Below, piece by piece: positions 3,017 through 18,012 of a DNA stretch of 64,000 nucleotides; the first letter of the stretch is position 1, and each line of letters begins with the position of its first letter. The notes below the pieces were generated by a model. The model worked only from the letters and a program-made list of their open reading frames with translations, made no database searches and had not been told where the DNA came from. This DNA is from an uncultured delta proteobacterium (GTDB lineage Bacteria > Desulfobacterota > Binatia > Binatales > Binataceae), in the NCBI GenBank assembly GCA_963789835.1, contig CAWBMF010000003.1:441068-505067 (forward strand). The letters run 5' to 3'. The position numbers and the translations under genes are program-made.

Positions 3017-4771
3017 ATGAATACAGATCTAGTGACAGACAAAACCGACGAGCGCAGTCCCACCTCAGATAGGTTCGATCGCGTTTTCTGGAAACGCTTT
3101 TGGCGATTGATCCGCCCGTATTGGACATCGGAAAGACGGCGGTCGGCCTTCGTGCTGGTTTCGGCAATGACGGTGCTGAATCTCGGCACGGTCGGGATGC
3201 AAGCGGTTTTCAGCTACGTGTCGCGCGACGTGATGAACGCGCTGCAAGCGAAAGACGCCGCACGGTTTCATCATCTCCTGGTGCTATTCGCGCTTTGGAT
3301 CGTGGTGTTCGTGCCCATCGCTGCCTTTTATCCATACTTAAGCGGGCTCCTCAGCATCGACTGGCGCGACTGGATGACAGAAAAATTTGTCAAAGGCATG
3401 CTGCAGGGCAACGCGCTTTACTACATCATGCGCGATCGTACGGTCGACAATCCCGACCAGCGGATCAGCGAAGACGTCAATAGCTTCACGAGCGGTGCGC
3501 TTACCTACTCGATGACCGTGCTGCAGGCGATCGTAACTGCAATCGCGTTTTTTGGAATCTTGTGGGAGATCTCGCGTTGGCTCGCCGTAAGCTTGATCGG
3601 CTATTCGCTGGTCGGCAGCTGGCTGGCCATCGTCATCGGACGCCGTCTGATAGTTATCAACTTCAATCAGCAACGGTTCGAAGCGGACTATCGGTTCGGA
3701 TTGGTCCACGCGCGCGACAATGCCGAAGCGATCGCGCTCTACGACGGCGCGCGCGATGAAGCTCATCAGCTAGGGCGGCGCTTTGCGAGGGTGGTCAACA
3801 ATTACAAGCTGCTCATTTTGTGGCAGCGTCATCTGACGCTCTTTACAGCCGCCTACGACAACGCGGCCAACCTCGTCCCATATTTCGTTTTGGCCGGCGC
3901 CTACTTTTCCGGACGTTTTGCGCTGGGCGAATTTACCCAAGCGGCGTATGCGTTTTCGATTCTGCAGAGTTCGATGGCGCTGGTTGTCGATCAATTCCAG
4001 GCACTTACCGACTACGCATCGGTGGTTAATCGTCTGTCGGTTTTCGAGGAGTCCTGTGAAAAGGCAGCCAGCAAGCAAAGCGATGGCGAGCAGCAAATCG
4101 AGGTAGCGGAAGATGACTCACAGATTGCGCTTAAGAACATCACCCTGGCGACGCCGGATCGCGCGCGCGTTTTGCAGCAGGATGTTTCACTTGCGGTCGC
4201 CCGTAGAGACTCTCTGCTGATCACCGGTCCGACCGGTGCGGGCAAGACCTCGCTCATGAGGGCTGTCGCGGGCCTATGGAGAGCCGGTAGCGGGGGAATC
4301 TTGCGGCCGTCGCCGAATCATATCCTGTTCATGCCACAAAAGCCTTATTTGATCCTGGGTTCGATTCGCCAACAGATTCAATATCCAAGGGCCGACGCGG
4401 TCAGCGACGAAACTCTCATGGAAGTGCTGCGCGAAGTCGACCTTGCCTATCTCCCCGGCCGGTTCGGCGGTCTCGACGCCGAGCTCAACTGGGCCGACTT
4501 GCTGTCGGGGGGCGAGCAGCAGCGTCTGGCCTTCGCGCGGCTCCTGCTCAGTCGACCGCGCTTTGCAATTCTCGACGAGGCAACCAGCGCTCTCGATATT
4601 GCTTCTGAAGAGCGCTTGTACTCGCGGCTTGCGAGCCTGCCCATCGCCTTTATCAGCATCGGGCACCGGCCAAGCCTGCGCAAATTCCATAACCGGGTGA
4701 TCGAGCTGTCCCTTGGCTCCGAGTCGCCGATCGAGATCGTCGGATGCGCCACTAACGAGTCCTCATCCTGA
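3017..4771 (+). CDS. fused ABC transporter permease/ATP-binding protein (ABCD / SbmA-BacA-like, ABC_membrane_2 type)
   Basis: N-terminal TM domain contains the NPDQRISEDV motif. C-terminal NBD has Walker A (GPTGAGKTS), the ABC signature LSGGEQQRLAFARLL and Walker B (ILDEATSALD). Confidence 0.8.
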   Translation: MNTDLVTDKTDERSPTSDRFDRVFWKRFWRLIRPYWTSERRRSAFVLVSAMTVLNLGTVGMQAVFSYVSRDVMNALQAKDAARFHHLLVLFALWIVVFVPIAAFYPYLSGLLSIDWRDWMTEKFVKGMLQGNALYYIMRDRTVDNPDQRISEDVNSFTSGALTYSMTVLQAIVTAIAFFGILWEISRWLAVSLIGYSLVGSWLAIVIGRRLIVINFNQQRFEADYRFGLVHARDNAEAIALYDGARDEAHQLGRRFARVVNNYKLLILWQRHLTLFTAAYDNAANLVPYFVLAGAYFSGRFALGEFTQAAYAFSILQSSMALVVDQFQALTDYASVVNRLSVFEESCEKAASKQSDGEQQIEVAEDDSQIALKNITLATPDRARVLQQDVSLAVARRDSLLITGPTGAGKTSLMRAVAGLWRAGSGGILRPSPNHILFMPQKPYLILGSIRQQIQYPRADAVSDETLMEVLREVDLAYLPGRFGGLDAELNWADLLSGGEQQRLAFARLLLSRPRFAILDEATSALDIASEERLYSRLASLPIAFISIGHRPSLRKFHNRVIELSLGSESPIEIVGCATNESSS

Positions 4772-4844
4772 TGCAATCGGGAAAAGAATCCTGGTGAGAG
4801 AGAACCATGCTTCCGGCTTGATCGCGCCCTCCTCGCCTCCAGAG

Positions 4845-5444
4845 TCAGCTGGGCGGTTGCTTATCCGGTGCCGCATCTCCGTCAAGCAAGCGCTGCAAAT
4901 GGCTGGAGGGAGATTCGTGCGCGGCGTGGCCGTCGTGCCCGGTATTCAAAGCGCAGGCCGGCGTGACGTGAGTCTGCGGCGGCTTGAACTCTGTGGGCAA
5001 CAAACGCTCGCGGGCTGCCCACTGATCGAAATTGCCGGGAGCGCTCGCCAGCAGGCGAAATCGCATACAGACAGTGTTGCAGCCACAACCGGAATCGCAA
5101 TTTCCGTGGAGCTCGCCGGGTGACTTGACGATCAGATCAAGTGGCCGCGTCTTACCGGGAAAGATGTCCACCGCGTCTTTCATTCCAGAAATCCAAAAGC
5201 TGTGGATCACGTCGGCGGAGGCGAGTTCAAGCCGCACATTCGTAGCAGTGGGAAGGTACAGTACATCGCTGGTCTTGATGCCGAGCGACGGGTAATCGAA
5301 TTCCCACCACCACTGATGCGCGACCGCCTTGACCGTGAGCGCAGGCCGGCTGTCGCCATCGACGATTCGAGCGACAGAGATCACTCCGGCGCAGATGCAC
5401 GCCAGACCGACGAGGGCTGCCACGAATGGCAAGGACGATTTCAT
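4845..5444 (-). CDS. cytochrome c oxidase subunit II-like cupredoxin domain protein (single N-terminal TM/signal, divergent CuA motif)
   Basis: HQWWWEFDYP and DVIHSFWIS match the COX2 cupredoxin core. Metal-site region reads HGNCDSGCGCNTVCM, where canonical COX2 reads CxExCGxxHxxM. Start overlaps the upstream SCO gene stop (ATGA). Confidence 0.6.
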   Translation of the reverse strand: MKSSLPFVAALVGLACICAGVISVARIVDGDSRPALTVKAVAHQWWWEFDYPSLGIKTSDVLYLPTATNVRLELASADVIHSFWISGMKDAVDIFPGKTRPLDLIVKSPGELHGNCDSGCGCNTVCMRFRLLASAPGNFDQWAARERLLPTEFKPPQTHVTPACALNTGHDGHAAHESPSSHLQRLLDGDAAPDKQPPS

Positions 5445-6172
5445 GCGCGCGCCGCCTGAAAGATAAGCGCTATGATGGCGCCGTCGGCGGCCGCAACCGG
5501 CTCGTGATCTACAGCCTTCTCGACGTCGCTCGCGACGCGGTCCGGCTCGGCCTTCTCGCCCATGTACTGCAGCAATGCTTTGCCGTTCGCATCGACCAGG
5601 AAGAACTCGAGAACATGATCGACGGTGCCGTCCGCTTCGTGCTTTCGAATCAGATCGAAATGCGCCATCACATCGTCGATCTGTTTTGGCGTTCCCGTAA
5701 GAAACAGCCAGCCATTAACGTCGGCGCCTTGTGCCTTCGCGTATGCGTTCAGCTGTGTAGGTTGATCGTGTTCGGGATCAACCGTGATCGACACGATGCG
5801 CGCTTCCGTTCCAAGCTTGGGCCCGAGTCGATTGGCAATCTGCTTCATCCGGCTCGTGAGGACGAGGCACGGTCCCGGACAGGTGGTGTAGATGAAATCG
5901 AACAGCACGGGTTTGCCCTTCAGCGAGGCCAGGGAAACGTTGTGGCCGTTCTGATCGACCAGCGTGATATCGGGCAAGCAGTCGGAGGCGTCGCGCACCT
6001 CGAATCCTCCACGCTCGCCGATGTCTGGTGCCTCTTGAGCCTGCTGGCGGCAACCAGTCAGCGTCACCGCGCCAACGAGCGTGATCAGCAGCGTCAGAAA
6101 TAAGCTTTTCCTGATTGACGAAACGGTTCGAGTAGAATTCATGGTACTTCTTTTTTTAATTCTCGCCGGCAT
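5441..6172 (-). CDS. SCO1/SenC-family copper chaperone/thiol-disulfide protein (lipoprotein)
   Basis: Thioredoxin-like fold with FIYTTCPGPC (CxxxC) and a downstream His. N-terminal lipobox LTGC. Alternative start MNSTR at ~6142 would remove the overlap with the upstream gene. Confidence 0.75.
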   Translation of the reverse strand: MPARIKKRSTMNSTRTVSSIRKSLFLTLLITLVGAVTLTGCRQQAQEAPDIGERGGFEVRDASDCLPDITLVDQNGHNVSLASLKGKPVLFDFIYTTCPGPCLVLTSRMKQIANRLGPKLGTEARIVSITVDPEHDQPTQLNAYAKAQGADVNGWLFLTGTPKQIDDVMAHFDLIRKHEADGTVDHVLEFFLVDANGKALLQYMGEKAEPDRVASDVEKAVDHEPVAAADGAIIALIFQAARA

Positions 6173-6620
6173 AATTTCTTCGGAGCGCCTCGCGTATCTG
6201 TTCGACCGGCGAGCCCTGCTCCGACAGTTGCTCCGCCATCAACGCCTCTCCGACGCAGATTTCGCACACCGAGGCGTGGGTGCCTCGATAACAATCGAGC
6301 AGATTCTGATGGCCGTAGGTCTTGTCGCATCCGCAATAGCAATGGAGTTGAGCGAGCAGCGCGGGATTCTTCTCCGCGACCTGGTACGCCTGCTTTACCG
6401 GACCGACGTACTGGTTAGGATCGAGCGTCAAGCGCCCCTGCGATCCGCTAGTGGCAACCGTTCCTGCAGTCGCCCGGCCCGCGCAGCAGCAATGGCCCCC
6501 AATGCACATCGCGCCGCGCGCACCGCCATTGTCCGCGATTGAGGCGCCGAACGCTGACCAGAGAAATGCCACTACCAGAACGGCCGCGGCCGAGGAGCCT
6601 AAAATAATTGCTCGCTTCAT
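6156..6620 (-). CDS. PCYCGC-motif protein (PF13798-like) with Cys-rich N-terminal segment
   Basis: HCYCGCDKTYGHQNLLDCY... motif. Signal/TM segment followed by CIGGHCCCAGR. Confidence 0.6.
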   Translation of the reverse strand: MKRAIILGSSAAAVLVVAFLWSAFGASIADNGGARGAMCIGGHCCCAGRATAGTVATSGSQGRLTLDPNQYVGPVKQAYQVAEKNPALLAQLHCYCGCDKTYGHQNLLDCYRGTHASVCEICVGEALMAEQLSEQGSPVEQIREALRRNYAGEN

Positions 6621-6630
6621 TCCGGCACTC

Positions 6631-7275
6631 TCAACTATGGCTCAGAGTTTTCTTAACGTCGTCGACGATGTCCTGCGCCTTGACGATCTGACCGTTGTAT
6701 TCTCGCACCAGCCGCCCATCCGGTCCAATCAGCATCATATTGACCAGGTGGCCGACCGAACCGTCCGGCTCGATTTCCCGGCTCAGCTTGAATCCGGCCA
6801 GCGCCTGATCGATGTCGCCGGGACCTCCGGTCAGGAAATACCATCCCTTCTCATCCGCCCCTTGCTGACGGGAGTAGTCGAGCAATTGCTTGGGCCCGTC
6901 ATGCTCGGGATCGACGGTGATCGAAACGAGCGTCACCTTCGATCCGAGATCGCTGCCGAGCCGCAGCGCGACGTTCGCAAATTTTGCCGTTTCCATCAGG
7001 CACGGTCCCGGGCATGACGTGTAGATGAAATCCACCACCAGTGGTTTGCCCTTGAGTGATGAGAGCTCAACCGTATTGCCATTCTGATCGACCAGCTTGG
7101 TGTCGGTGAGGACACTAGCGGGGCCATTCACGGTTGAGCCGCTGTGGCATCCAGCCGCTGTAAATAAGCTCGAAGCTACGGCCAGCACGATGCCGAGAGA
7201 TCTAAGATTGAAACTAATATTACTCATATCTGTCTCCGTCAAAAGCTGTAACTCAAGATCGTTTTGATCGCGCAA
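6631..7275 (-). CDS. SCO1/SenC-family protein (second copy)
   Basis: FIYTSCPGPC CxxxC motif. Paralogous to 5441..6172 (VDQNGxxVxLxSLKGKPxxxDFIYTxCPGPC). Confidence 0.75.
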   Translation of the reverse strand: MRDQNDLELQLLTETDMSNISFNLRSLGIVLAVASSLFTAAGCHSGSTVNGPASVLTDTKLVDQNGNTVELSSLKGKPLVVDFIYTSCPGPCLMETAKFANVALRLGSDLGSKVTLVSITVDPEHDGPKQLLDYSRQQGADEKGWYFLTGGPGDIDQALAGFKLSREIEPDGSVGHLVNMMLIGPDGRLVREYNGQIVKAQDIVDDVKKTLSHS

Positions 7276-7297
7276 GGCGCCACCAATACTCGCGGCT

Positions 7298-7672
7298 TCA
7301 TGGCGTCAGCGACCACGTCAGGACCGGGAGGGGGACCTTCCGATCGAGTGCTTCGGCGTTCTCATACATGGTGCGATCGTCCTCAGCGAGGGTCTCTCTT
7401 GCTTGATTCGAGTTGGCCACGCATTGAGACACATCGCGCTTGAAATACAGTGACTGGATTTCCAGCGGAGAGAGCGCGCCGAGAGGCATCACGACGTTGC
7501 TGGTTACAGCGTCGTCGCTCATCGCCGCTTCTTCGATGCACTTATCCTCGTTTTGATCGAGGCGCTGCTCAGCCTGTTCGAGGTTACTCTTTGCCGCGAC
7601 CGAGTTGTCCGGAGTTTGCGTTGCACAGCCGACGAGAAGAATCGCGATAATGGCGAAGACTCTCATCTTCAA
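7298..7672 (-). CDS. hypothetical lipoprotein
   Basis: Signal peptide plus lipobox (LLVGC). Acidic, coiled protein. Translationally coupled with the upstream TlpA gene (overlap at 7669-7672). Confidence 0.45.
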   Translation of the reverse strand: MKMRVFAIIAILLVGCATQTPDNSVAAKSNLEQAEQRLDQNEDKCIEEAAMSDDAVTSNVVMPLGALSPLEIQSLYFKRDVSQCVANSNQARETLAEDDRTMYENAEALDRKVPLPVLTWSLTP

Positions 7673-8103
7673 TGTCCCTGGCCCGCGTCGTGGGACGCCG
7701 CTCGTTCAGACAATAACGGCAGGACGGCCTTGCTCAGGCTTTGCTCAGTCAGAGGAGTTTCGTCGGGGGTCAGCTTAGCGCGAACAATACCCTGCTCGTC
7801 GACGATGTAAGTGATGGGGAGTTCGGTAGGATCGTTGAAGCCGTTGGATTCGCAATCGCGCAACATCGCTGCCGGGTAAGCGAAGGACTCCATCGTCTTG
7901 GCAACATCCGACCGTTCGTGCAGCCGATTAGCCGCCAGACCGATCATCTCGAGTCCCTTGTCGTGATAGCGTCGATAGAACGCGTCGAGCGTCGGCATTT
8001 CCGCCTGGCACGGAGGGCACCAAGTGGCCCAGAAGTTGACTACGACCACCTTTCCGCGTTGTGCGGCGAGATCAAAGGATTGGCCGTTCAACTCCTGGAC
8101 CAC
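7669..8103 (-). CDS. TlpA/ResA-like thiol-disulfide oxidoreductase (thioredoxin fold); N-terminus probably extends upstream
   Basis: VVNFWATWCPPCQAEMP motif. ORF track starts at a GTG (8101-8103). The same frame stays open up to ~8217 and encodes a signal-like NALAALVLLTISFAATSAC, but has no canonical start codon. Confidence 0.65.
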   Translation of the reverse strand: MVQELNGQSFDLAAQRGKVVVVNFWATWCPPCQAEMPTLDAFYRRYHDKGLEMIGLAANRLHERSDVAKTMESFAYPAAMLRDCESNGFNDPTELPITYIVDEQGIVRAKLTPDETPLTEQSLSKAVLPLLSERAASHDAGQGH

Positions 8104-8223
8104 AAGTGCCGGCGCCGCCTGGCCGATTTCTGCTCCGCCGAAAGCCTCGCACGCACTCGTAGCCGCAAACGAGATTGTCAGAAGAACGAGCGCCGCGAGT
8201 GCATTGCCGCATCTCGATCACCT

Positions 8224-9195
8224 TCAGAAGCTATAGCTGACGATCGTTTTGATCGCGTAAGGCGCCGACAACTGGTAGCCGTTCATGTTGCGAAATATCG
8301 GCAGCTCGACATCTGAGTACCACCTAATCGACTTGTACGCCGTCTCAAGACCAGGAGCGACTTGTATTCTGAAGTAACCACTATCGTGGGGATCTGAATT
8401 TGTCCCGCGGTCGTGGTTCCGGTCGCTGACCAGAAACGTCAGGAACGGCGCAAATTCCGTGAGATAACTGACCTTACCGAAATCGTAGTACGTCCCATAG
8501 CCTCCGTCGAACTCGTGGCCGGGCTTGTAATGGTCCTGATACGCGAACGGCTGATCCCACATGCCTTGCGCATAGTAGCCAAAGGGGCGATCTTCCAATT
8601 TCAGTATCGGAAGAGTGCCCATGTGGTAAGCGCCTATCAGCAGGTCGGTGCTGCCCGTTCCGATCTGAGTGTCACGATCCCACGGCGGGTAGTGCCAGTT
8701 GCCCGACGGAACCTTGAAACCGGCCAAGACACCGGTCGACATATCCTCCTGCAAGCCCGTCCACATGCCCAATATGCGGATGTCGCCTATCGAGTTCGAG
8801 TCGTACGACTTCACGTCATCGTTGTCGCCATTGTAGGCGCCTCGATAATTCCTCTCCCAGTAGGGCACTTCCAGCATCACGCCCCAGCTCCGATTGAACA
8901 TGTATTGCCCGCCGACGGTAACAAAGTTGGTCGCCAACTTCTTGTCGTTGTTGTACTGCCCCGAGGCTGGCCCCGTTGCGTGCCAGTTTATGTACTGGTT
9001 CATGAAGTCGTACTCGATCCACGCCATCGCACCAGCGCCCATAGGAAGCAGTGAGGGCGTCGCGACTTCGAACACCCCACATCCGCATGCGCACGCCCGA
9101 ACCATGCCAGGCGTTAGCCCCACAAATAGAACGGCGGCGACCAACAAGCGTCGAGCCGCGTTGGACAAAAGCACAAACTCAGAAATCCGTCTCAT
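8224..9195 (-). CDS. putative outer-membrane beta-barrel protein
   Basis: Signal peptide, Gly/Tyr/aromatic-rich alternating sequence and C-terminal ...IVSYSF (terminal Phe). Unusual N-terminal MRACACGCGVFE Cys cluster. Confidence 0.5.
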   Translation of the reverse strand: MRRISEFVLLSNAARRLLVAAVLFVGLTPGMVRACACGCGVFEVATPSLLPMGAGAMAWIEYDFMNQYINWHATGPASGQYNNDKKLATNFVTVGGQYMFNRSWGVMLEVPYWERNYRGAYNGDNDDVKSYDSNSIGDIRILGMWTGLQEDMSTGVLAGFKVPSGNWHYPPWDRDTQIGTGSTDLLIGAYHMGTLPILKLEDRPFGYYAQGMWDQPFAYQDHYKPGHEFDGGYGTYYDFGKVSYLTEFAPFLTFLVSDRNHDRGTNSDPHDSGYFRIQVAPGLETAYKSIRWYSDVELPIFRNMNGYQLSAPYAIKTIVSYSF

Positions 9196-9349
9196 CTAAC
9201 CTTCCCCCGGCGAACACCTAGTGGCGCGCCGTTACCTGAACGAAAAGCCTCGCGCCCTGATGCTCGTAACATCGGGCGCTCAAATCGGATTGCTTGTCGA
9301 ACGAAGCTTTTAGACTGAGTGCTTAGGGGGAGGAGTATCGGGAGCGACC

Positions 9350-9625
9350 TTAAAATCGATCGATTGCACCGATTTTGTCACGGTGGTCGAGCCCAGGTCG
9401 AAAAGAGCGAACTCTGGTAGAACTGTCGCTGGACGGGCAAGCAACATGTTCTGAGACCTGATCGAACATTTGAAGCGGCTGGCAAATGTTAACGGTCAGT
9501 TCTGGATGGCTCGGTCCGGAGACAATCACGAACCCAGCAGTCGAGGGAGCGCTTCCCAAGAACAACACGATCGCTAAGATTAAACTCAACGCCCGTAGGT
9601 CAGCCTTTGAAAACAAGCCCCGCAT
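9350..9625 (-). CDS. small membrane/secreted protein (paralog of 10675..11031), partner of DUF2318 gene
   Basis: MRGLFSKADLRALSLILAIVLFLGSAPSTAGFVIVSGPSHPELTVNICQPLQMFD. Near-identical N-terminal half to the 10675..11031 product. Confidence 0.4.
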   Translation of the reverse strand: MRGLFSKADLRALSLILAIVLFLGSAPSTAGFVIVSGPSHPELTVNICQPLQMFDQVSEHVACPSSDSSTRVRSFRPGLDHRDKIGAIDRF

Positions 9626-9639
9626 ACTGCAGTGCACCC

Positions 9640-10131
9640 TTAGAACAGTCCCCGCTCGCGTTCAAGATCGGCCGGGTTGATGTTGACGGTGTGGCCAGTC
9701 GTCTGGAACGGCAGTTTCACCGGCACACACGACACGAACCCGGACTCCATTGATTCCAACTTGTATCGAGTGCCGCAATATCTGCAGACGAGATACCCGT
9801 GTGAACTGGCGTAACCCTCGCCATACATGGAGCAGCGTCGGCACGCGTCGAAAGCTCCCTTAATCTTTCCAGTGGAGTCACGAGCTAGAAGAAACCGAAT
9901 CTGGTCGCCCGCCCGATCCTTGTATGAGAAGAAATGAACATCACCGGGCTGTAGGCTATCGGTTTCAATGCTTACGATCGGATTTGCGCTGACGGTGATG
10001 AATTGAGGACCCGTCGCCATCGCGACCAATGAGACTGCGACTGTCATGAAAGCAGCGGCAATCAACAGTCCAGTACGCCCTCGAAATCTGGTGATCGCGG
10101 AAGCCGTTTTTAAGGACCGCGGAATCTTCAT
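9640..10131 (-). CDS. DUF2318-like Cys-rich membrane protein (CxxC...CxxC)
   Basis: TM segment followed by FDACRRCSMYGEGYASSHGYLVCRYCGTRYKL...CVPVKLP. Start placed at internal MKIPRSLK to avoid overlap with the upstream YHS gene; the ORF could extend to 10233. Confidence 0.5.
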   Translation of the reverse strand: MKIPRSLKTASAITRFRGRTGLLIAAAFMTVAVSLVAMATGPQFITVSANPIVSIETDSLQPGDVHFFSYKDRAGDQIRFLLARDSTGKIKGAFDACRRCSMYGEGYASSHGYLVCRYCGTRYKLESMESGFVSCVPVKLPFQTTGHTVNINPADLERERGLF

Positions 10132-10180
10132 AGCGAACGTCCTACCGTGTGTCTCAGTTAGACTCGAGCCGCGCGACCGC

Positions 10181-10552
10181 TTAAGGTGCCGAGTTCGCGG
10201 CGGGCGTAATGCCTTCCGATAGATGCTTCGCAAGATACTTCTTGGGAGTTTTCACGAAAGCGTCGCGCTCCATGTCGTCGCAAAAGTAGTAATCCTTCCC
10301 ATCGAACGTGGCGGCTGGCGTATCGGACTTTACCGTAAGATGCATTCCGCAATACGCGCACATCGTCTTCTTTCCAACGTCACTGGCTGGCGCTTGCGAA
10401 AGAACGCTTGCGATCTCAGGCGAAGCCGCGCGAGCGGAACCTGAGAAGTAGAAAAAGCCACTCAGAACCACCGACATCGTCGCGATTAAGACGATGGCCT
10501 TGTTTCTATGCAGTGCACTGCTCTTTCGTATCTCGGCTGATGTGAAATTCAT
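10181..10552 (-). CDS. YHS-domain-like metal-binding protein (membrane-anchored)
   Basis: N-terminal TM segment. MCAYCGMHLTVKSDTPAATFDGKDYYFCDDMERDAFVKTP resembles the YHS/TRASH CxxCGM motif. Confidence 0.5.
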   Translation of the reverse strand: MNFTSAEIRKSSALHRNKAIVLIATMSVVLSGFFYFSGSARAASPEIASVLSQAPASDVGKKTMCAYCGMHLTVKSDTPAATFDGKDYYFCDDMERDAFVKTPKKYLAKHLSEGITPAANSAP

Positions 10553-10674
10553 CTTTTATCTCCCGTCGCAATGAGCCGACTGACGCGACAATTCACCTGA
10601 AACGAAAAGCCTTGCGCCGCGCCATCCGCGGCGTCGGGCGCGCAAATCGTAATCAGGTTGTCGAACGGAACTAT

Positions 10675-11031
10675 CTAGACGGGTAGCTTTGGCGGCGGCG
10701 TGTCGGGAGCGAAGCGAAAATCGACCGGTCGCCCAGCCATCTTGACAACGGTCAAGCCCAGGTCGCGCAGAACGAACTCGGGCTGTACCGTCGCAGGTCG
10801 GGCAAGCAAGGTGTTCGACGCACGGTCGAACATTTGAAGCGGCTGGCAGATGTTGACGGTCAATTCAGGATGACTCGGTCCGGAGATAACGACGAACCCT
10901 GCCGTCGAAGGGAAGCTGGCCAACAACATGACGATGGCCAGGATTAAACTCAGATCTCGAAGATCCGACTTTGAAAACATGCGTCCCATTTCTTCTACAG
11001 ATCTCTTAGAACAGTCCTCGCTCATGTTCAA
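10675..11031 (-). CDS. small membrane/secreted protein (paralog of 9350..9625)
   Basis: MFSKSDLRDLSLILAIVMLLASFPSTAGFVVISGPSHPELTVNICQPLQMFD. C-terminal tail diverges from the other copy. Confidence 0.4.
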   Translation of the reverse strand: MNMSEDCSKRSVEEMGRMFSKSDLRDLSLILAIVMLLASFPSTAGFVVISGPSHPELTVNICQPLQMFDRASNTLLARPATVQPEFVLRDLGLTVVKMAGRPVDFRFAPDTPPPKLPV

Positions 11032-11039
11032 GATCGACG

Positions 11040-11419
11040 GGCTTGATGTCGACGGTGTGCCCGGTCATCCGAAATGGCAATTTCACGGGCACGCATGATC
11101 CGCGCCCGGATTCCATCGCATCCAACTTGTACCGATTGCCGCAATATCCGCAGACGAGGTCCCCGTGTGAACTGTCATAGCCCTTCCGATACATCGAGCG
11201 CCGTCGAATTCCTTGCCTGGCACATAGAGGTCGCTGTGCAGAAACGGATATTCGTACTGAACCTGCGCGTACCAGTTGATGGGCCGCTCCCACAAGGTGA
11301 GGTTGAAGTTGCCAATCCGGTTCGGAAGCGACCCTGTGTGTGGCGAATTGTTGATTTTGGCAGAACCGGAAGCCGGAGTGCAGACTTGCTAACGGTCCCC
11401 ACTCTCCCAAGGACAGCAA
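11040..11419 (-). pseudogene. degenerate DUF2318 paralog fragment fused to an outer-membrane-protein-like remnant
   Basis: The last ~65 aa (RRRSMYRKGYDSSHGDLVCGYCGNRYKLDAMESGRGSCVPVKLPFRMTGHTVDIKPVDLEHERGLF) align with the C-terminus of 9640..10131. The first CxxC and the TM region are lost. An overlapping frame (11083..11295) reads like the C-terminal strands of a beta-barrel protein. Confidence 0.4.
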
Positions 11420-11504
11420 ATGATCCCCACGACTCCGCTACCGCTCGCCGGTAAGACCGCTCGTCACCAAATGCACCTTTGCCGGCGTCAGTTTTATGGA
11501 ACTG

Positions 11505-14500
11505 CTACTTGGGGCATACTCCCGTCGTGTTCGGTTGCGTCGAGTAGAGGCATTGTGCGCCAGCTATAGTTGAGTTTTGGAGATTGTAGTTGACGTTCCA
11601 TTGGAACGGATTATCAGGATTCATTGCGTTGAATGGCGACGGCATCGGCCGCTCATCGCGATCATCGGCAACGAAGCACTTATCCTTCTCGTTGGGACCG
11701 CACGCGGCAGGAAAGGTTATCTGGAAGGCCGGACAACCCGGTGCCGGGCAGTCTACAAACTGGGGAGGGCAGCCGGCTGGATTCGTACAGTTAAGAGGGA
11801 AAGGCTGAATCGACCAATCGCAAACGGTCTGACCCAAGGGATTCGTTTGTTTGCAAATGCTCGCATAGGGGCCACTCGGATTGCACTGACACCGTTCGGC
11901 GCTCTGACTCCAGGTACACATAGTAGCTGGTTGGCAATAACGCTTACCCAGTGAAACGGGAGGTTTCGTGTTCGCGGCCGTTGCATTTAAGCTATAGTTA
12001 CCAGCGATCTGGGAGAAATTGGTGCTAAGTGTCAGGATGCCCGAGCTAGGAGTATACTTAGCCGTCCATGCGCCACTCATGACATCTTTGACTGGGGCTG
12101 GAGTGAAGTTAAACGGCAGGGTTAAACCTTCGTAGCCGAAGACTACATTGGTTGCGGCGAAGTCTTTGTTGTCCTTTGTCGGTATATTCTTACCCACGAA
12201 CACCTGGTAGGTCTGCTGCGTGTCCTGCTTCGAGAAGAGAAAGAAAAGATCGTAGACGCTCCCGCCAGTAAAAACATTGAAACTTTGGAAAGGTGGGACC
12301 GCGTTCGCCTGGCTCTTCCTCGAGACCGTCGTGTTGAGGTAGTAGGCGCCGTGATTGACGGTCAGAGCGCTGCGCTGGAAATTGTTCTGCCCCATCATCC
12401 GCTTCAATTGGATATCGGGATCTGTTTTTTCTCCCGGCGTGAGTAGTTGTCGATAGAGCTGTACGCCGGGGCATCCGAAGTTGGGAGGTGACGCCGTACA
12501 GACGCTGCCCCAGTTGTCGTCGTTTGGACAAAAACTGGGAGCTCCACTCTCAGGAGGCGGCGGAGCCAGCTTTGCGCATTCAGGATAGATCACCGTACTT
12601 ACATATTCGTAGGGGCTGGTTTTCGCGGTAGCGGGCAAGCACTTTGGAGCATAAGTACTGGCATTTGTCGGATAATCCGAAGCGCATTCCCAGGCTTCGG
12701 TCGGAGCCTTGAAGAAATCCGCCTTGTTGACCGAGATTGTGTCGTACTGGGTGCTCATACTTGGGGTTGGTGTCGCTGTTGGTACGGGAGGACCCACCGG
12801 GCTGGTCAAGCCGGTCAGCGTGCCGTCATCGTCGTTCAACACCGTCTCTCGATCGATGTCGGTAAAGCCTTGGAAGTATGCTGGATTCCAAGTGCAGTAT
12901 TCTTTTTTCGTCGCGTCCTCGTCGGTTTTGAAGCTCAAGGGGCCCTTTAGGAAGCTTGGGTCGGTGACAAAATGGCGGATGTCGACGCCGTTGAAGTACA
13001 GATTGAGCGAATGAAACGCGGGCGCGTAGTAAAAGCCGTTGGGCTGTTTCCATCCAATCCCTGCGTTGGGCTCAAAGCAGCGAGCGCCACCAGCGATCGG
13101 CATGTCCTTCGCGTCGAGCGGCCGGTAAGCGCGCAGGCCATTGACCCCGCCACTAATGAAACCCGCAAACTGACAGGGATTGCCGGCGACGCTGCTAGGC
13201 TCACACTTGCCGCCCTTGGTATCCAGCACCGCGCCTTTGGCAGTTCCGTCGGCGGTCAACCAGGTAGGGTGAATGTCGAGATAGGCGTTGGAGTCCTGAA
13301 AAATGGGACCGTCGTAAACGCTGAAGAGCCGCTGAAAGCCTGCGAAGGCGCCTACCTGAAAGTTCACGCCATCTTTCTGCGATAGACAGAATGCATTGTT
13401 AGAATTTCCGTTGAAGGGATCGAGGGCGCAGGTCAATCCAGTGATTTTACTGTTCTCGCCTGTTCCAATCGTGGCCTTAAATGGATTGAAAGGTCCGGCG
13501 TTGGACGCGTAGGGATTCGCGGCGAGAGCGCTGTTATTTGGATTCTGCCATTGAGAACTCCCGATGAGCGCAGATTGCCGCACCAACCCCCAATAACCGG
13601 GAAATACAGAAGCAGCGTCGTAACCGCCACTGGTTACGAAATTGACTCCGGCGTTCTGCGGATCGCTGATGATGCTGTCAACTGCCAACGACCACAGCGA
13701 TCTCATCCAGACGGCGGCGAAGTTGCCCTCCGCCCAGTTGAACGAGGTCGTAAACCCGTTGAGCACGACCACGTCGCAATTGGCTTGATTCGCCGATGCG
13801 CAGATGGGGACGGTTGAGCAGTCGGGGTTGGTGTTGCCATTGTCAGCCGCCGGACAGCGCGTCGGCAGACGCAGGCCGGTGACCTGAGGCCAGTAAGCAG
13901 TGCCGGAGGGCGGCGGAGCCTGGGGTGAGGGCACCATCAGAAGCGTAGAGTTTGGAGCTTTCAGGAAACTCGGATCAATCTGGTTGACGCCGTTGCAAGC
14001 GGCTAGAGCGCCGACCTCGACAAAGCCTTCCATTGCCGTGCTACAGGAGTTGCCGACGAAGTTTTGCAGCGGGCTGATGCCGGCCCGTCCTATGCCGACT
14101 TGCTCGCCGGCGTATCCGTACCATTTCTCGGTCTGCGAAGGGCCGCTAATCGCTCCCGGCACCAGCCAGTAGCAGGCGCCGCACTCGCCGGCGCCGGCCG
14201 CCATGTTGTACTGGAAGTCATTCATGCCGTTCATGATCCAGAACACTGACGGATTTTGTGAGTCCGAGTAATAAGGAAGGGTGCTATATCCGCTGACACA
14301 AAATTGAGGAGTCTCTTTTGTACAGCAATTTGGAGGGTTGCCCGTACAGGTTGGCGCAGTAGCCGTCAGGATACCTGGAACCATGCGCGGATTCTGCGGA
14401 TTGGCGTCGGCCGCCGTTAAGCCATTGGCCACTGCGCCGCGCGCGAAAGCGCCGAGATTGGCGTACAGCTGATTGCCGGTCTCGGTGCCGTCCTCGAGAT

Positions 14501-15902
14501 AATAGCCGTGACCGATCGACTCGAAGCCTACATTGCGCGCCAGCCGGACGCCCTGGGTAGCATGAATCGTTATCCAGCGCGTCATTGAATCCCATATCGA
14601 AGAGTCCTTGACGAAGGTGATCGGCTGGGTCGCGCCTATCCCTGGCACCTGGCGGTCCATGTGGAAGTGCACCGGGTAGTGCATGATGCTGCCGCCCTGG
14701 CCGAGTTGATAGAACTCGACGCCCTGCACCTGGTAAAGCAGGAAGCCCTGACGCACGATAGTGTGGCCGCCGAAATAGTTGTCGGGATTTCCCGGATCGA
14801 CTGTGAACTCCGAGCCCGGCGTATCGCCGTCGGAAACAACCCGGATGTTGCGCGACAGCAACCCCACCGAGGCGCGCAGATCGCCCGAGGTAGGGAAGTT
14901 CGGCCCAAGACGCGATATGCCGGGGAAGGTCGCGTTGGACAGGTCGAATAGTTGCCCATTGTGCGGATACTGGACCGCGGTGAGGAGTGGAATCGTCGTA
15001 ACCCCGCCGCTGGTAGTGGGCGTACCATTGATATTCAGGTGCTCCGAATGCCCAGGCAGATAGTCGGTGGTGGTCAGTACGATATCGTCGCCGTTTTGCC
15101 AATCCACTGCGCCAGCAACCTGCAGGCTCGTATCGCCGGGCAGCGCATTCTTATTCAAGCGAACCCAGCTGGTCCCGGTGCACGAGGAACTATTTTCCAT
15201 GCATCCGGTCGCGGACGTGCTGCCATAGGTTGCGCCTTTCGCGCCGAACATTTGTAGCGTGCCGTTGTAAGACACCGCCAGCACCTTGTGCCCAAAATAG
15301 GCGGTGGGGTTGTTCGTCTGATCCGCCGGGTCCAGTGCGTCATAGTCGTAGAAGCAGTCGCTAACGCCACCTGGCAGCGCAGACGGCTTGCACGTAGCTG
15401 GATTCATCGAGCGCGTATTGGTTCCCAGGGGAGGGCTCGGGATGCCGCAGTTGGCGGACGCACAGGTAACCCCGGGATCGCCCGGCGCACCCCACAGATG
15501 AATTGTCACCAGGCCGCCGTTGGTTCCGATCGGGGTTTCAGAGCCCGCGATTAAAGCGCCGCCGCTCTCGACGACGATGTTCTCCGCGTAGAAGTCGATC
15601 TGCGCGTCATCGAAGGTCAAGATGCCTTTACTGCCACCTGAAGTAAAAATGTTGACGTTGTGGAAGTAGTAGGTGAGAGAGGGGACGCTGGCGGAGCCCT
15701 TTACCTCGCACGGACCGGTGACCTGGAGATCGGTGGTGGCGCCGGCAGACATCTCGTTGGGCATCAACGGCATGTCCGCCGTGTCGTTACAGGTCACCAC
15801 CGTAGCCATTGCGGGGCTGGCGAAAAGTACGAACAGCATCGATAAGATCAAGCCGGAAAGTGAAAGCTTATTGGAGCATTCGATTCGAGACTTTATCGAC
15901 AT
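11505..15902 (-). CDS. very large secreted Cys-rich protein (1465 aa), function unknown; possible beta-helix / G8-like carbohydrate-active fold
   Basis: Signal peptide (LILSMLFVLFASPAMA), many Cys and Gly/Asn-rich repeats, and a central YPVHFHMDRQ motif. Long uninterrupted frame. Confidence 0.55.
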   Translation of the reverse strand: MSIKSRIECSNKLSLSGLILSMLFVLFASPAMATVVTCNDTADMPLMPNEMSAGATTDLQVTGPCEVKGSASVPSLTYYFHNVNIFTSGGSKGILTFDDAQIDFYAENIVVESGGALIAGSETPIGTNGGLVTIHLWGAPGDPGVTCASANCGIPSPPLGTNTRSMNPATCKPSALPGGVSDCFYDYDALDPADQTNNPTAYFGHKVLAVSYNGTLQMFGAKGATYGSTSATGCMENSSSCTGTSWVRLNKNALPGDTSLQVAGAVDWQNGDDIVLTTTDYLPGHSEHLNINGTPTTSGGVTTIPLLTAVQYPHNGQLFDLSNATFPGISRLGPNFPTSGDLRASVGLLSRNIRVVSDGDTPGSEFTVDPGNPDNYFGGHTIVRQGFLLYQVQGVEFYQLGQGGSIMHYPVHFHMDRQVPGIGATQPITFVKDSSIWDSMTRWITIHATQGVRLARNVGFESIGHGYYLEDGTETGNQLYANLGAFARGAVANGLTAADANPQNPRMVPGILTATAPTCTGNPPNCCTKETPQFCVSGYSTLPYYSDSQNPSVFWIMNGMNDFQYNMAAGAGECGACYWLVPGAISGPSQTEKWYGYAGEQVGIGRAGISPLQNFVGNSCSTAMEGFVEVGALAACNGVNQIDPSFLKAPNSTLLMVPSPQAPPPSGTAYWPQVTGLRLPTRCPAADNGNTNPDCSTVPICASANQANCDVVVLNGFTTSFNWAEGNFAAVWMRSLWSLAVDSIISDPQNAGVNFVTSGGYDAASVFPGYWGLVRQSALIGSSQWQNPNNSALAANPYASNAGPFNPFKATIGTGENSKITGLTCALDPFNGNSNNAFCLSQKDGVNFQVGAFAGFQRLFSVYDGPIFQDSNAYLDIHPTWLTADGTAKGAVLDTKGGKCEPSSVAGNPCQFAGFISGGVNGLRAYRPLDAKDMPIAGGARCFEPNAGIGWKQPNGFYYAPAFHSLNLYFNGVDIRHFVTDPSFLKGPLSFKTDEDATKKEYCTWNPAYFQGFTDIDRETVLNDDDGTLTGLTSPVGPPVPTATPTPSMSTQYDTISVNKADFFKAPTEAWECASDYPTNASTYAPKCLPATAKTSPYEYVSTVIYPECAKLAPPPPESGAPSFCPNDDNWGSVCTASPPNFGCPGVQLYRQLLTPGEKTDPDIQLKRMMGQNNFQRSALTVNHGAYYLNTTVSRKSQANAVPPFQSFNVFTGGSVYDLFFLFSKQDTQQTYQVFVGKNIPTKDNKDFAATNVVFGYEGLTLPFNFTPAPVKDVMSGAWTAKYTPSSGILTLSTNFSQIAGNYSLNATAANTKPPVSLGKRYCQPATMCTWSQSAERCQCNPSGPYASICKQTNPLGQTVCDWSIQPFPLNCTNPAGCPPQFVDCPAPGCPAFQITFPAACGPNEKDKCFVADDRDERPMPSPFNAMNPDNPFQWNVNYNLQNSTIAGAQCLYSTQPNTTGVCPK

Positions 15903-16011
15903 TGGCGATCTCTCCCCAGATCGTAGTGCCCGCGAGGTTTGCGTTGTTGAGAATGAACTAATATAACGCGGCAGAATATATCAAGCGTTCAGTCGACGAC
16001 AGAAACAAAAA

Positions 16012-18012
16012 ATGAACGATGCTGCGATGAAGATTGCACGCGACTGCGGGACCATACTCCCACTGATTCTTGCTCTGCTAGTGGGATCGTTGGTGCTTAG
16101 CGGATGCGGTGGTGGATCGAGTTCAAACTCGCAAGAGCATCGACGGCCGACGCCGACCGCCACGCCCACGCCTCCGCCCCCGGGCATCGTCGGCTTTCTA
16201 GTTGGCGGTTCACCGTCGGTTGGCAGTCCAATCAGCGGGGCCGTGATTACCTTGTATCAGGCGAGCGCGAGCGGCTATGGCACGGGAGCGCTCCAGCTCG
16301 CGCAGGTAGATTCACAATCCGACGGCAGCTTCAGCGTCTCGTCGTTCACGTGCCAGACTACGGGCTATTCGCAACAGATTTACCTGGTCGCGACCGGCGG
16401 CACGATTAGCGGTCAAAGCAACGCCAACCCAGCTATCGCGCTGGGCGCGGGCATCGGCACGTGCACCAACTTTGCTCACTCAGTGGTCATCAATGAAGCG
16501 ACCACAATTGCGACAGTCTGGGCGCTGGATCAGTTCATGGATCCGACCGGGCAAAACGTCGGGACGTCGGCGACCAACCAGACCGGGCTCAACAACTCCG
16601 CAACCGCGATGAGCTCGGACAGCTTCGTCGACCTGAGCACCGGGCTTGCACCAACGTCGTTTCCGGACGGGCTTACCTCGCCCACCGCCACACTATATTC
16701 ATTGGCCAACATATTGTCCGCATGTGTAAATTCGTCCGGCGAAAGCTCCGCCGGCTGTCAAAATCTGTTCAGCGCGGCGACTCCGCCTGGTGGCGTCGCG
16801 CCTACAACCACAGTGCAGGCGGCGCTGGACATCGCGCGCAATCCAGTCAACAACGTCAGCGCCCTGTTCGCGTTGATACCAGCCAGCCCGCCTTTCTCGC
16901 CGGGTCTGACTTCGGCGCCGGCAAGTTGGGTACTGGCGCTCAATTACGCGCCTGCAAGCGCCGATTTCAAATCGCCGTACCAAATCGCTTTAGATGCAGC
17001 CGGCAACGTTTGGGTAGTGAACGCCAGTGGCGACAGCGTCACCGAATTGATCGGCGCAAGTGGCTACACGACGGCACTGGAATTCGCACCCTCCGGCGCC
17101 GATCTGAGCTTCCCGGACTGGCTCGCCTTTGACGCGGCGGGCAACTTATGGGTGGCGAATCTGAACAGCAACAGTATTAGTGAACTGACAGCCACGAGCA
17201 ATTACTCGACTGGCTTTAATTTCGCGCCGGCGGGTGCGGTCCTAAGCAATCCTCTCTCGATCGTTTTCGATGCCGCCGACAACCTTTGGGTGGCGAACTT
17301 TGGCGGCGACAGCGTCAGTGAATTGCTGGCCGGATGCTCCAGCGCGACTTGCACCGGGACAAATTTTAACAACTCGAACACCGGCAGCCCCGGCGCCCTA
17401 TTCAGCAGTCCCAGCTCAATCATTGCCGACGTGGCCGGCAATCTGTGGATTACGAACTTCGCCGGCAATAGTGTCACCGAATTGCTGACAGGATGCTCCA
17501 GCACAGCTTGCACCGGCGCCAATTTCAATAGCAGCAACACCGGCAGTCCTGGCGCATCGTTTGCCGCGCCGCTCGAGGTTGAGGTCGACGGTGCTGGCAA
17601 TATCTGGGCGGTAAATTCCAACGGCAACAGCTTGAGCGAACTACCCGCAGGCTGCACTCTCGCCAGCTGTACCGCCGGAAATTTCAACAACTCAAATACC
17701 GGTAGCCCTGGTGCAATTTTCAGCGGTCCCAACTCGCTTGCAATCGACTCCAGCGCGAACATCTGGGTCGAAAATCTATCCGGCAACAGCGTGAGTGAGC
17801 TGACCGCGTCGAGTAGCTACGCGACCGGCTTCAACTTCGGACCCTGGCCAATAGCTTATGCGCAGTTCTCAATCGCGGCCGATGCGTCGGGCAACCTCTG
17901 GATAGCGAATAACTACGACGACAGTGTAAGCGAGGTGGTGGGTGTCGCAACTCCTATACTCACTCCTTCGCTAGCCTGCCTTCAGCTTGGCCGTAACGTG
18001 TGCCTGCCGTAG
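16012..18012 (+). CDS. NHL-repeat (beta-propeller) lipoprotein
   Basis: Lipobox LVLSGCGGG, then a Pro/Thr linker, then ~8 tandem ~45-aa repeats of the type FxxPxxIAxDxxGNLWVxNxxxNSVSELxA. Confidence 0.6.
   Translation: MNDAAMKIARDCGTILPLILALLVGSLVLSGCGGGSSSNSQEHRRPTPTATPTPPPPGIVGFLVGGSPSVGSPISGAVITLYQASASGYGTGALQLAQVDSQSDGSFSVSSFTCQTTGYSQQIYLVATGGTISGQSNANPAIALGAGIGTCTNFAHSVVINEATTIATVWALDQFMDPTGQNVGTSATNQTGLNNSATAMSSDSFVDLSTGLAPTSFPDGLTSPTATLYSLANILSACVNSSGESSAGCQNLFSAATPPGGVAPTTTVQAALDIARNPVNNVSALFALIPASPPFSPGLTSAPASWVLALNYAPASADFKSPYQIALDAAGNVWVVNASGDSVTELIGASGYTTALEFAPSGADLSFPDWLAFDAAGNLWVANLNSNSISELTATSNYSTGFNFAPAGAVLSNPLSIVFDAADNLWVANFGGDSVSELLAGCSSATCTGTNFNNSNTGSPGALFSSPSSIIADVAGNLWITNFAGNSVTELLTGCSSTACTGANFNSSNTGSPGASFAAPLEVEVDGAGNIWAVNSNGNSLSELPAGCTLASCTAGNFNNSNTGSPGAIFSGPNSLAIDSSANIWVENLSGNSVSELTASSSYATGFNFGPWPIAYAQFSIAADASGNLWIANNYDDSVSEVVGVATPILTPSLACLQLGRNVCLP

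Follow-up and report, generated by a model that had tools for sequence, protein, structure and literature searches.

A conserved Sco/TlpA gene cassette of Binataceae encodes a COX2-derived cupredoxin with a rewired metal loop

On the minus strand of a 64,000-nucleotide stretch of contig CAWBMF010000003.1 (hereafter the window) lies a cassette of genes for envelope proteins, which ends in a gene for a cupredoxin related to subunit II of cytochrome oxidases (COX2). We call this gene and its product cox2L. The cassette is best explained as an envelope unit for copper handling that is specific to the Binataceae, and the cupredoxin as a descendant of an oxidase subunit II that has ceased to work with an oxidase. 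It also codes for Sco copper chaperones, a TlpA-like thioredoxin, a lipoprotein and an outer-membrane β-barrel, and we consider it probable that the whole forms a copper module, of whatever kind, with a Sco/TlpA client. The cassette is an undescribed variant of the COX2/Sco/TlpA system. As the original prediction, made from the sequence alone, had supposed for this type of operon, no description was found in the literature (on PCYCGC/CYCXC/DUF2318, Binatota copper, MauE-rhodanese-Sco and orphan CuA cupredoxins) or in curated family libraries. Both the cupredoxin and the β-barrel have their closest relatives in metagenome-assembled genomes (MAGs) of Candidatus Binatus or Binataceae from soils and peat, a result that places the host in the Binataceae (Binatota) and not, as first supposed, in the Acidobacteria.

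The cox2L protein was predicted by AlphaFold to consist of a single N-terminal membrane helix (residues 5-29) and a periplasmic cupredoxin domain (predicted local distance difference test score, pLDDT, 75), with a well predicted β-sandwich and a poorly predicted C-terminal tail. The protein had initially been taken to be soluble, which is at odds with this membrane helix. The top matches of the fold in a Foldseek search were all subunit II chains with a probability of 1.00, and the matches included solved CoxB domains and the TlpA-CoxB mixed disulfide 4txv. By sequence, the best solved relative was subunit II of the Thermus caa3 oxidase (2yev_B, E 1.7e-24), followed by CyoA, subunit II of the bo3 quinol oxidase (1cyx/1cyw, E about 1e-15). 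The score with Pfam family PF00116 exceeded the cutoff of 22, whereas the NCBIfam CoxB equivalog TIGR02866 did not accept the protein (98.9 bits, cutoff 147.7); NCBIfam holds no dedicated model for cox2L.

The alignment to 2yev_B was used to map the copper ligands. The metal loop of cox2L reads C116-D-S-G-C120-G-C122-N-T-V-C126-M127 and is combined with H81. Four CuA ligands are retained, namely the first His (H81), the two bridging Cys (C116 and C120) and the Met (M127). The Glu between the two Cys is replaced by S118 and the second His by T124, and two cysteines, C122 and C126, have been gained on either side of T124. The canonical loop C-x-E-x-C-G-x-x-H-x-x-M is thus confronted with C-D-S-G-C-G-C-x-T-V-C-M, and cox2L, which the original prediction called CuA-like, is strictly speaking no CuA protein. 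A scan with one genome per species yielded 80 loci, 36 of which carry the variant metal loop (including L001-L033 and L036; L034 is canonical). The complete CuA ligand set H ... C-x-E-x-C-x3-H-x2-M was absent from cox2L across these 36 genome loci.

The altered loop is strongly conserved. In the 36 genome loci and in all 120 listed database homologues the pattern C-D-[SA]-x-C-G-C-x-x-x-C-M is nearly invariant over a range of 40 to 94% sequence identity, and H43, H81 and C164, the latter in the C-terminal tail, are likewise conserved. A degenerate relic was ruled out because the residues at the ligand positions are invariant at 50 to 94% identity in more than 100 sequences. An Fe-S cluster bound by the four Cys was considered unlikely, given the lack of a twin-arginine signal, the Sec-type appearance of the membrane anchor and the Sco partners. 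When 1.84 billion cluster representatives were searched with a profile, the variant loop was limited to about 17-20 clusters at 50% identity, after which canonical sequences followed. Canonical COX2 proteins of the same lineage carry CAEFCGLSHANM, corresponding to the pattern CAEFCGxxHxxM. Both forms occur in MAG DATJRJ01, the variant one in locus L011 and the canonical one in L042; cox2L is a paralogue of canonical COX2 and not its replacement.

The genomic context of cox2L differs from that of canonical COX2 as well. A gene for subunit I (COX1) was found within 10 kb in only 1 of the 33 variant loci used for synteny, compared to 44 of 45 canonical COX2 loci, where it is directly adjacent. 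Even in the single variant locus concerned, L003, COX1 lies some 7 kb off, beyond the limits of the cassette. This disposes of the objection that the gene set might commonly flank an aa3 or caa3 oxidase operon. Within the 64-kb window, a tblastn search with Binataceae COX1 gave no match, the scanned large open reading frames (ORFs) contained no NosZ, P-type ATPase or oxidase domains, and no P-type ATPase was present among the ORFs of at least 600 amino acids. The predicted lack of CtaD/CoxA, NosZ and P-type ATPase genes is in line with these searches of the 64 kb, and the proposal of a gene set of the CuA-assembly type (Sco plus TlpA-like thioredoxin) around a COX2-type cupredoxin, but without a catalytic subunit, is supported. 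A copper operon further along the window was ruled out, as the other large ORFs scanned code for housekeeping or unrelated functions (DnaK/DnaJ, PPK2, a two-component system, a sulfate permease and a type III polyketide synthase).

The synteny of the cassette was analyzed by ORF clustering and tblastn in the 33 variant loci L001-L033. A core consisting of barrel, TlpA-like thioredoxin, lipoprotein, Sco and cupredoxin genes is conserved and was found in syntenic order in about 20-32 of the 33 loci. The most constant partner of cox2L is Sco (32 loci), followed by the TlpA-like thioredoxin (28), the barrel (27), a small membrane protein here called 'small' (24) and the lipoprotein, which occupies the same position in 20 loci. 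The Sco gene is located directly upstream of cox2L in about 29 of the 33 loci, with a 4-nt overlap in the window and in several other loci and a short gap elsewhere. Genes for DUF2318 (13 loci) and for 'small' lie mostly upstream of the core. The CYCXC gene (8 loci) almost always directly follows a Sco gene of its own, and this pair recurs in L001 (twice), L002, L016, L025, L027 and L029. The window therefore contains the core plus an inserted Sco-CYCXC pair. This pair and the YHS/DUF2318/'small' module are variable add-ons to the core; homologues of the YHS gene are present in L016, L025, L027 and L029. Downstream of cox2L, a membrane-anchored rhodanese is encoded in 16 loci and a MauE/DoxX membrane protein in 15, both confirmed by Pfam, and in three loci (L001, L002 and L020) CopC and CopD come next, which adds weight to the link with copper. 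The window has no homologues of rhodanese, MauE, CopC or CopD. The expectation that the synteny would be conserved elsewhere was thus borne out among the Binataceae: since the arrangement recurs in 33 independent genome loci, it is more than a chance feature of a single genome.

Several of the related loci showed individual variations of the cassette. In three divergent metagenome contigs, L083, L084 and L085, Sco still directly precedes cox2L; L085 also has the thioredoxin, and a gene for a protein of 139 amino acids is located between thioredoxin and Sco. In L084, the variant cupredoxin lacks the fourth Cys (CDTSCGCNAIGM) and is directly followed by a gene for a c-type cytochrome of 135 amino acids (833-1240). 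L003 codes for an Fe/Mn superoxide dismutase inside the cassette (7933-8631), at the place where the window has Sco; its 41-residue N-terminal extension makes an exported or anchored protein likely. In L004-L010, which represent a subgroup of the Binataceae, a gene for a ZIP/ZupT-type metal transporter (e.g., L004 5230-5976) is located about 20-60 nt upstream of 'small' and is read in the same direction. In L012, L017, L018, L026 and L028, only the last codons of DUF2318 (roughly ...ADLERERGLF*) are left before 'small', which indicates that DUF2318 was repeatedly deleted from an ancestral DUF2318-'small' pair. Between MauE and CopC-CopD, L001 (11723-12649) as well as L002 and L020 code for an exported protein of 308 amino acids without a match in Pfam or NCBIfam. 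The L001 protein is barrel-like and was considered as a relative of the cassette barrel, but no similarity between the two was detectable.

The outer-membrane barrel belongs to a family with more than 2000 homologues in the protein collection searched, of which the 120 listed had neither a Pfam domain nor an informative name. In 116 of these 120 homologues, a C-x-C-x-C motif is located immediately behind the signal peptide. The structural model of the window protein has 12 strands (pLDDT 78), as expected for a channel fold of the COG4313/FapF type. By profile comparison, the barrel has no sequence link to any solved protein; NCBIfam gave no match, and the OMP_b-brl score of 17.5 bits remained below the cutoff of 28.7. 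The COG4313 channel (4rl8), FapF (5o65) and, more distantly, the copper-resistance barrel PcoB (7pge) are accordingly comparable in fold but show no sequence-level relationship, and the N-terminal CxCxC is specific to the family of the cassette barrel. The N-terminus of such outer-membrane barrels lies in the periplasm, and the Cys triad should therefore be located where Sco and thioredoxin act.

The reading we favour, tentatively, is that cox2L is a membrane-tethered copper protein rich in thiolates, which is matured by Sco and TlpA and relays copper within the periplasm. Since the site consists of one His, four Cys and one Met, it is predicted to hold a bi- or polynuclear Cu(I) cluster with many thiolates and not the mixed-valence centre of a classical CuA site. 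The content of the cassette and its neighbourhood (Sco, thioredoxin, outer-membrane channel and CopCD, but no efflux pump or multicopper oxidase) resembles that of operons for cuproprotein biogenesis or copper acquisition and not that of resistance operons, as these are generally known (see also the review PMC7558416). It is this content, together with the composition of the site, that leads us to favour a membrane-tethered Cu(I)-thiolate relay. By analogy with CoxB, ScoI and TlpA of Bradyrhizobium (Canonica et al., 2019; PMC6669012), the TlpA-like thioredoxin would maintain Sco, the cupredoxin and perhaps the CxCxC tail of the barrel with their Cys in the reduced state, and the Sco protein encoded next to cox2L would load copper into the cupredoxin. 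The latter might then serve as an acceptor and relay, anchored in the inner membrane, between the 12-stranded outer-membrane channel and consumers in the inner membrane, e.g., CopC/CopD, which are encoded downstream in some genomes, or cuproenzyme assembly. The role of the cassette would thus be the acquisition and allocation of copper and not respiration. In a more far-reaching version, the loop C-x3-C-x-C-x3-C-M and His81 would form an undescribed copper centre derived from CuA (thiolate-capped binuclear, or a tri- or tetranuclear Cu-thiolate), and the cassette would be a relay from the outer to the inner membrane unique to the Binatota, with its own channel, reductase and chaperone. This version is possible but doubtful; the metal centre taken by itself has a fair, though less than even, chance of being new.

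Several observations weigh against a copper relay. No PCuAC/PcuC homologue was recognised in the cassette, and neither a copper-responsive regulator nor a corresponding operator was found, the promoter and sigma-54 scans being uninformative. The rhodanese and MauE/DoxX genes downstream of cox2L speak for thiol or sulfur chemistry no less than for copper, and the c-type cytochrome behind the divergent L084 cupredoxin hints at electron transfer. Moreover, the TlpA-like and 'small' genes are frameshifted in the window copy. Finally, DUF2318 and YHS are fused in FetA, which is part of the Campylobacter FetMP iron-uptake cluster (PMC10783030), and the upstream DUF2318/YHS module is therefore perhaps not specific to copper.

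The hint of electron transfer can be extended to a CuA-like protein in which a thiolate takes over from the lost His and which acts as a periplasmic shuttle to or from a redox partner, the cassette only building its metal centre. The cupredoxin would have kept what such a protein needs, i.e., the COX2 fold, the aromatic HQWWWEFDYP motif, H81, both bridging Cys and Met127, and it comes with the full Sco/TlpA assembly set. Engineered CuA sites have been reported to tolerate the loss of the second His. Neither a cytochrome c nor any other redox partner is, however, conserved in the 33 loci; the c-type cytochrome was rejected as a partner of the cassette, being found in the divergent contig L084 only and in 0 of the 33 loci. 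Four thiolates plus a Met are also commoner in Cu(I) trafficking or storage sites than in electron-transfer sites, and we regard this explanation as unlikely. If the site was instead made for binding Cu(I) as such, the cassette might serve copper detoxification or sequestration, with the cupredoxin, the Sco proteins and CYCXC soaking up periplasmic Cu(I) and the barrel providing an exit. No efflux ATPase, RND (resistance-nodulation-division) pump or multicopper oxidase was seen in the window, nor could any be recognised in the ORF clusters that recur in the related loci. Each of the proteins would be a stoichiometric binder present in one copy and would offer little capacity, and CopCD neighbours are more often linked to copper uptake. 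A role in detoxification therefore appears quite unlikely.

The cassette might also be mainly a periplasmic redox relay of the thiol/disulfide or persulfide type, directed against oxidative or sulfur stress, in which the Cys of the cupredoxin are redox dithiols and not metal ligands. Such a relay would accommodate the rhodanese and MauE/DoxX genes found after cox2L in 15-16 loci, the TlpA-like thioredoxin, the CYCXC family, whose members are occasionally selenoproteins, and the superoxide dismutase of L003; a complex of DoxX, rhodanese and SodA has been described in M. tuberculosis. On the other hand, the most constant partner, Sco, belongs to a copper chaperone family, the CopCD neighbours indicate copper, the invariant His81 and Met127 would have no purpose in a pure dithiol relay, and rhodanese and MauE are absent from the window, all of which makes this proposal improbable. 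The descent of cox2L finally leaves room for an alternative subunit II that assembles, e.g., under special conditions, with a heme-copper oxidase subunit I encoded elsewhere. Sequence and fold both match COX2, a single membrane helix also occurs in subunit II of ba3-type oxidases, and in L003 a subunit I gene lies at a distance of about 7 kb. Against this stand the missing COX1 gene in the vicinity of 32 of the 33 variant loci, the loss of the second His ligand and the presence of canonical COX2 with its own subunit I in the same lineage and the same MAG. In addition, the Glu of the CuA loop, which is Ser or Ala here, also binds Mg at the interface of subunits I and II in A-type oxidases. We hold an alternative subunit II to be very improbable.

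The cassette can also be compared with the following known systems. Like the CoxB/ScoI/TlpA system of Bradyrhizobium diazoefficiens (4w9z, 4txv), the cassette combines a COX2 cupredoxin having a Cys-x3-Cys loop, a His and a Met with Sco and a TlpA-like thioredoxin; it differs by the altered loop, the single membrane helix, the missing subunit I, the lack of a recognised PcuC and the addition of an outer-membrane channel and a lipoprotein. CupA of S. pneumoniae (4f2e) is a membrane-anchored cupredoxin Cu(I) chaperone with a binuclear Cys/Met site (PMC7558416) and thus a precedent for such a function of an anchored cupredoxin. It shares with cox2L the single N-terminal membrane anchor and the sulfur-rich cupredoxin site, and the trafficking role serves as a working analogy only. 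CupA is exposed to the cytoplasm and delivers to the CopA ATPase, whereas the Binataceae cassette has no P-type ATPase and its cupredoxin descends from COX2; CupA was not detectable as a sequence relative of cox2L and was not among the top 50 fold matches. CyoA is also a natural COX2 homologue that has lost CuA ligands, but it has lost all of them and has remained an oxidase subunit beside CyoB, whereas cox2L has kept two Cys, His and Met, has added two Cys and has no subunit I. The fetMP-fetABCDEF cluster of Campylobacter jejuni (PMC10783030) likewise brings together DUF2318 and YHS, alongside periplasmic thioredoxins. FetA is, however, one protein of eight helices encoded near an FTR1-type permease, P19 and an ABC (ATP-binding cassette) transporter, whereas the window has two separate small proteins, and no gene for FTR1 or P19 was found among the window ORFs scanned.

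Few metal sites in biology are as invariant as CuA, and as a rule subunit II is not found apart from its oxidase. In cox2L, a conserved natural paralogue appears to have kept the scaffold and the assembly factors, to have had its ligands rewired (His and Glu out, two Cys in) and to have left the oxidase. It can thus be viewed as a natural experiment on the evolution of copper sites and on what Sco and TlpA can build. If the proposed role is true, a copper-handling route would be added to the Binatota, a widespread uncultured phylum of soil and peat, some of whose members rely on copper enzymes, among them copper membrane monooxygenases (PMC8262859). The central question of copper binding is directly testable, because the soluble domain is small and the Sco partner is encoded alongside.

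The features of the cassette and of the region upstream of it are summarized in Table 1.

Table 1. Features of the cox2L cassette and its upstream region in the window.
Feature	Coordinates	Strand	Characteristics
COX2-derived cupredoxin (cox2L)	4845-5444	minus	199 amino acids; PF00116 50.7 bits
Sco/SenC copper chaperone, cupredoxin-coupled type	5441-6172	minus	PF02630 100.4 bits; CPGPC and distal His
CYCXC/PCYCGC Cys-rich exported protein	6156-6620	minus	NF041379 111.2 bits; PF13798 43.2 bits
Second Sco/SenC protein, type travelling with the CYCXC gene	6631-7275	minus	PF02630 84 bits; CPGPC and His
Small lipoprotein, lipobox VGC and two further conserved Cys	7298-7672	minus	no Pfam match
TlpA/ResA-like periplasmic thioredoxin, WCPPC	7669-8213 (ORF 7669-8103 plus signal peptide to about 8213)	minus	AhpC-TSA 67.4 bits, Redoxin 65.1 bits; Thioredoxin also matched
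Outer-membrane 12-stranded β-barrel	8224-9195	minus	mature N-terminus CACGCGVFEV (CxCxC)
Conserved leader, two hairpins and U-rich tract	9196-9309	minus	alignment of 28 loci
Small single-pass membrane protein ('small')	9310-9637	minus	conserved ...TVNICQPLQ..., C-terminal PDTPPPK; no family match
DUF2318/FtrD-like membrane-anchored Cys-rich protein	9640-10233	minus	PF10080 68.4 bits; DAC..C ... CR.CG ... SC.P
Exported YHS-like protein (CAYCG...)	10181-10552	minus	PF04945 21.2 bits, below cutoff of 30.3
Second copy of hairpin/U-tract/hairpin leader, before YHS gene	10553-10674	minus	sequence and fold
Intact paralogue of the small membrane protein (small2)	10675-11031	minus	ORF list and comparison
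Barrel-gene fragment fused to 3' part of DUF2318 gene	11006-11419	minus	PF10080 over last 60 residues only

The ORF list and the family matches largely agree with the originally predicted gene order on the minus strand from 10552 to 4845. All of the nine genes named in that prediction are present, but a tenth one, coding for the small membrane protein at 9310-9637, had been overlooked. The tight packing was confirmed, with two overlaps of 4 nt (5441-5444 and 7669-7672) and one of 17 nt (6156-6172). When the named families were checked with hidden Markov models, SCO, PF13798, COX2 and DUF2318 scored above their cutoffs (22.8 for PF02630, 25 for PF13798; 90 for NF041379, which the CYCXC protein also passed), whereas the YHS protein remained sub-threshold in the window; its homologue in L016 reached 31.0 bits. 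The CYCXC motif of the window protein reads HCYCGCD...C...C..C, and the distal His of the two Sco proteins is visible in the translations within ...DHVLEF... and ...GHLVNM.... The thioredoxin scored below the NCBIfam cutoffs for the ResA subfamily (80.8 versus 170) and the TlpA equivalog (58.5 versus 230). No family was found above threshold for the lipoprotein and the barrel, and 'small' has no match in Pfam or NCBIfam. The statement that every coding sequence matches a copper accessory protein was therefore too strong, since lipoprotein and barrel match no family and a copper role is not established for PCYCGC, DUF2318 and YHS. Directly upstream of the features listed, on the minus strand at 11505-15902, a secreted protein of 1465 amino acids with G8 and CEMIP β-helix domains is encoded, which is probably unrelated, because it was found beside the cassette in none of the 33 related loci.

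In the conserved leader that follows 'small', a GC hairpin and a U-rich tract are succeeded by another hairpin, which ends at the ribosome-binding site GGGAGA of the barrel gene. The same architecture is repeated before the YHS gene, where the second hairpin differs in sequence but its pairing is kept, and the element follows 'small' genes in about 15 Binataceae loci. RNAalifold revealed a few compensatory pairs (modest covariation); both hairpins were present in the minimum free energy folds, with z-scores that were not significant in comparison to shuffled sequences. An Rfam search of 4600-16200, leader included, gave nothing relevant. The leader is probably an intercistronic terminator or attenuator and not a riboswitch; it may also act as a translational control element, and it may split or attenuate the transcript between the upstream module and the core from barrel to cupredoxin. 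As the leader suggests partial termination or attenuation, a single nine-gene operon is unproven. Predicted sigma-70 promoters and terminators in 4600-16200 were not in excess over shuffled sequence and hence uninformative. A sigma-54 consensus site on the right strand was not found upstream of the cassette, nor was there an excess over shuffles, and no sigma-54 sites were found upstream of 'small' in loci with a nearby sigma-54 activator.

The two frameshifts of the window copy are due to insertions of single nucleotides. In the TlpA-like gene, 1 nt is inserted after codon 3, at about 8200-8213 (CAATGCA versus CAGGCA in L001 and L003), so that the sole ATG (8213) is not in frame with the signal peptide and the thioredoxin domain, both of which are otherwise intact. 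In 'small', 1 nt is inserted near position 9449 relative to the paralogue at 10675-11031 and to L003; the uninterrupted ORF extends from 9350 to 9637, and as listed it ends in out-of-frame sequence because of this insertion. Both frameshifts may be assembly errors or real lesions. In a different frame, barrel genes from L001, L003 and L027 are matched by the N-terminal part of the ORF at 11006-11419 (...YAQVQYEYPF..PGKEFDG). At the DNA level, this barrel fragment is closest to the L003-type barrel gene, and a short TTCGACG microhomology marks its junction with a DUF2318 gene, of which the 3' third is left. The sequence of this junction and its surroundings indicates that 10675-11419 is a decayed duplicate of a DUF2318-'small'-barrel module that arose by a past tandem duplication and a deletion.

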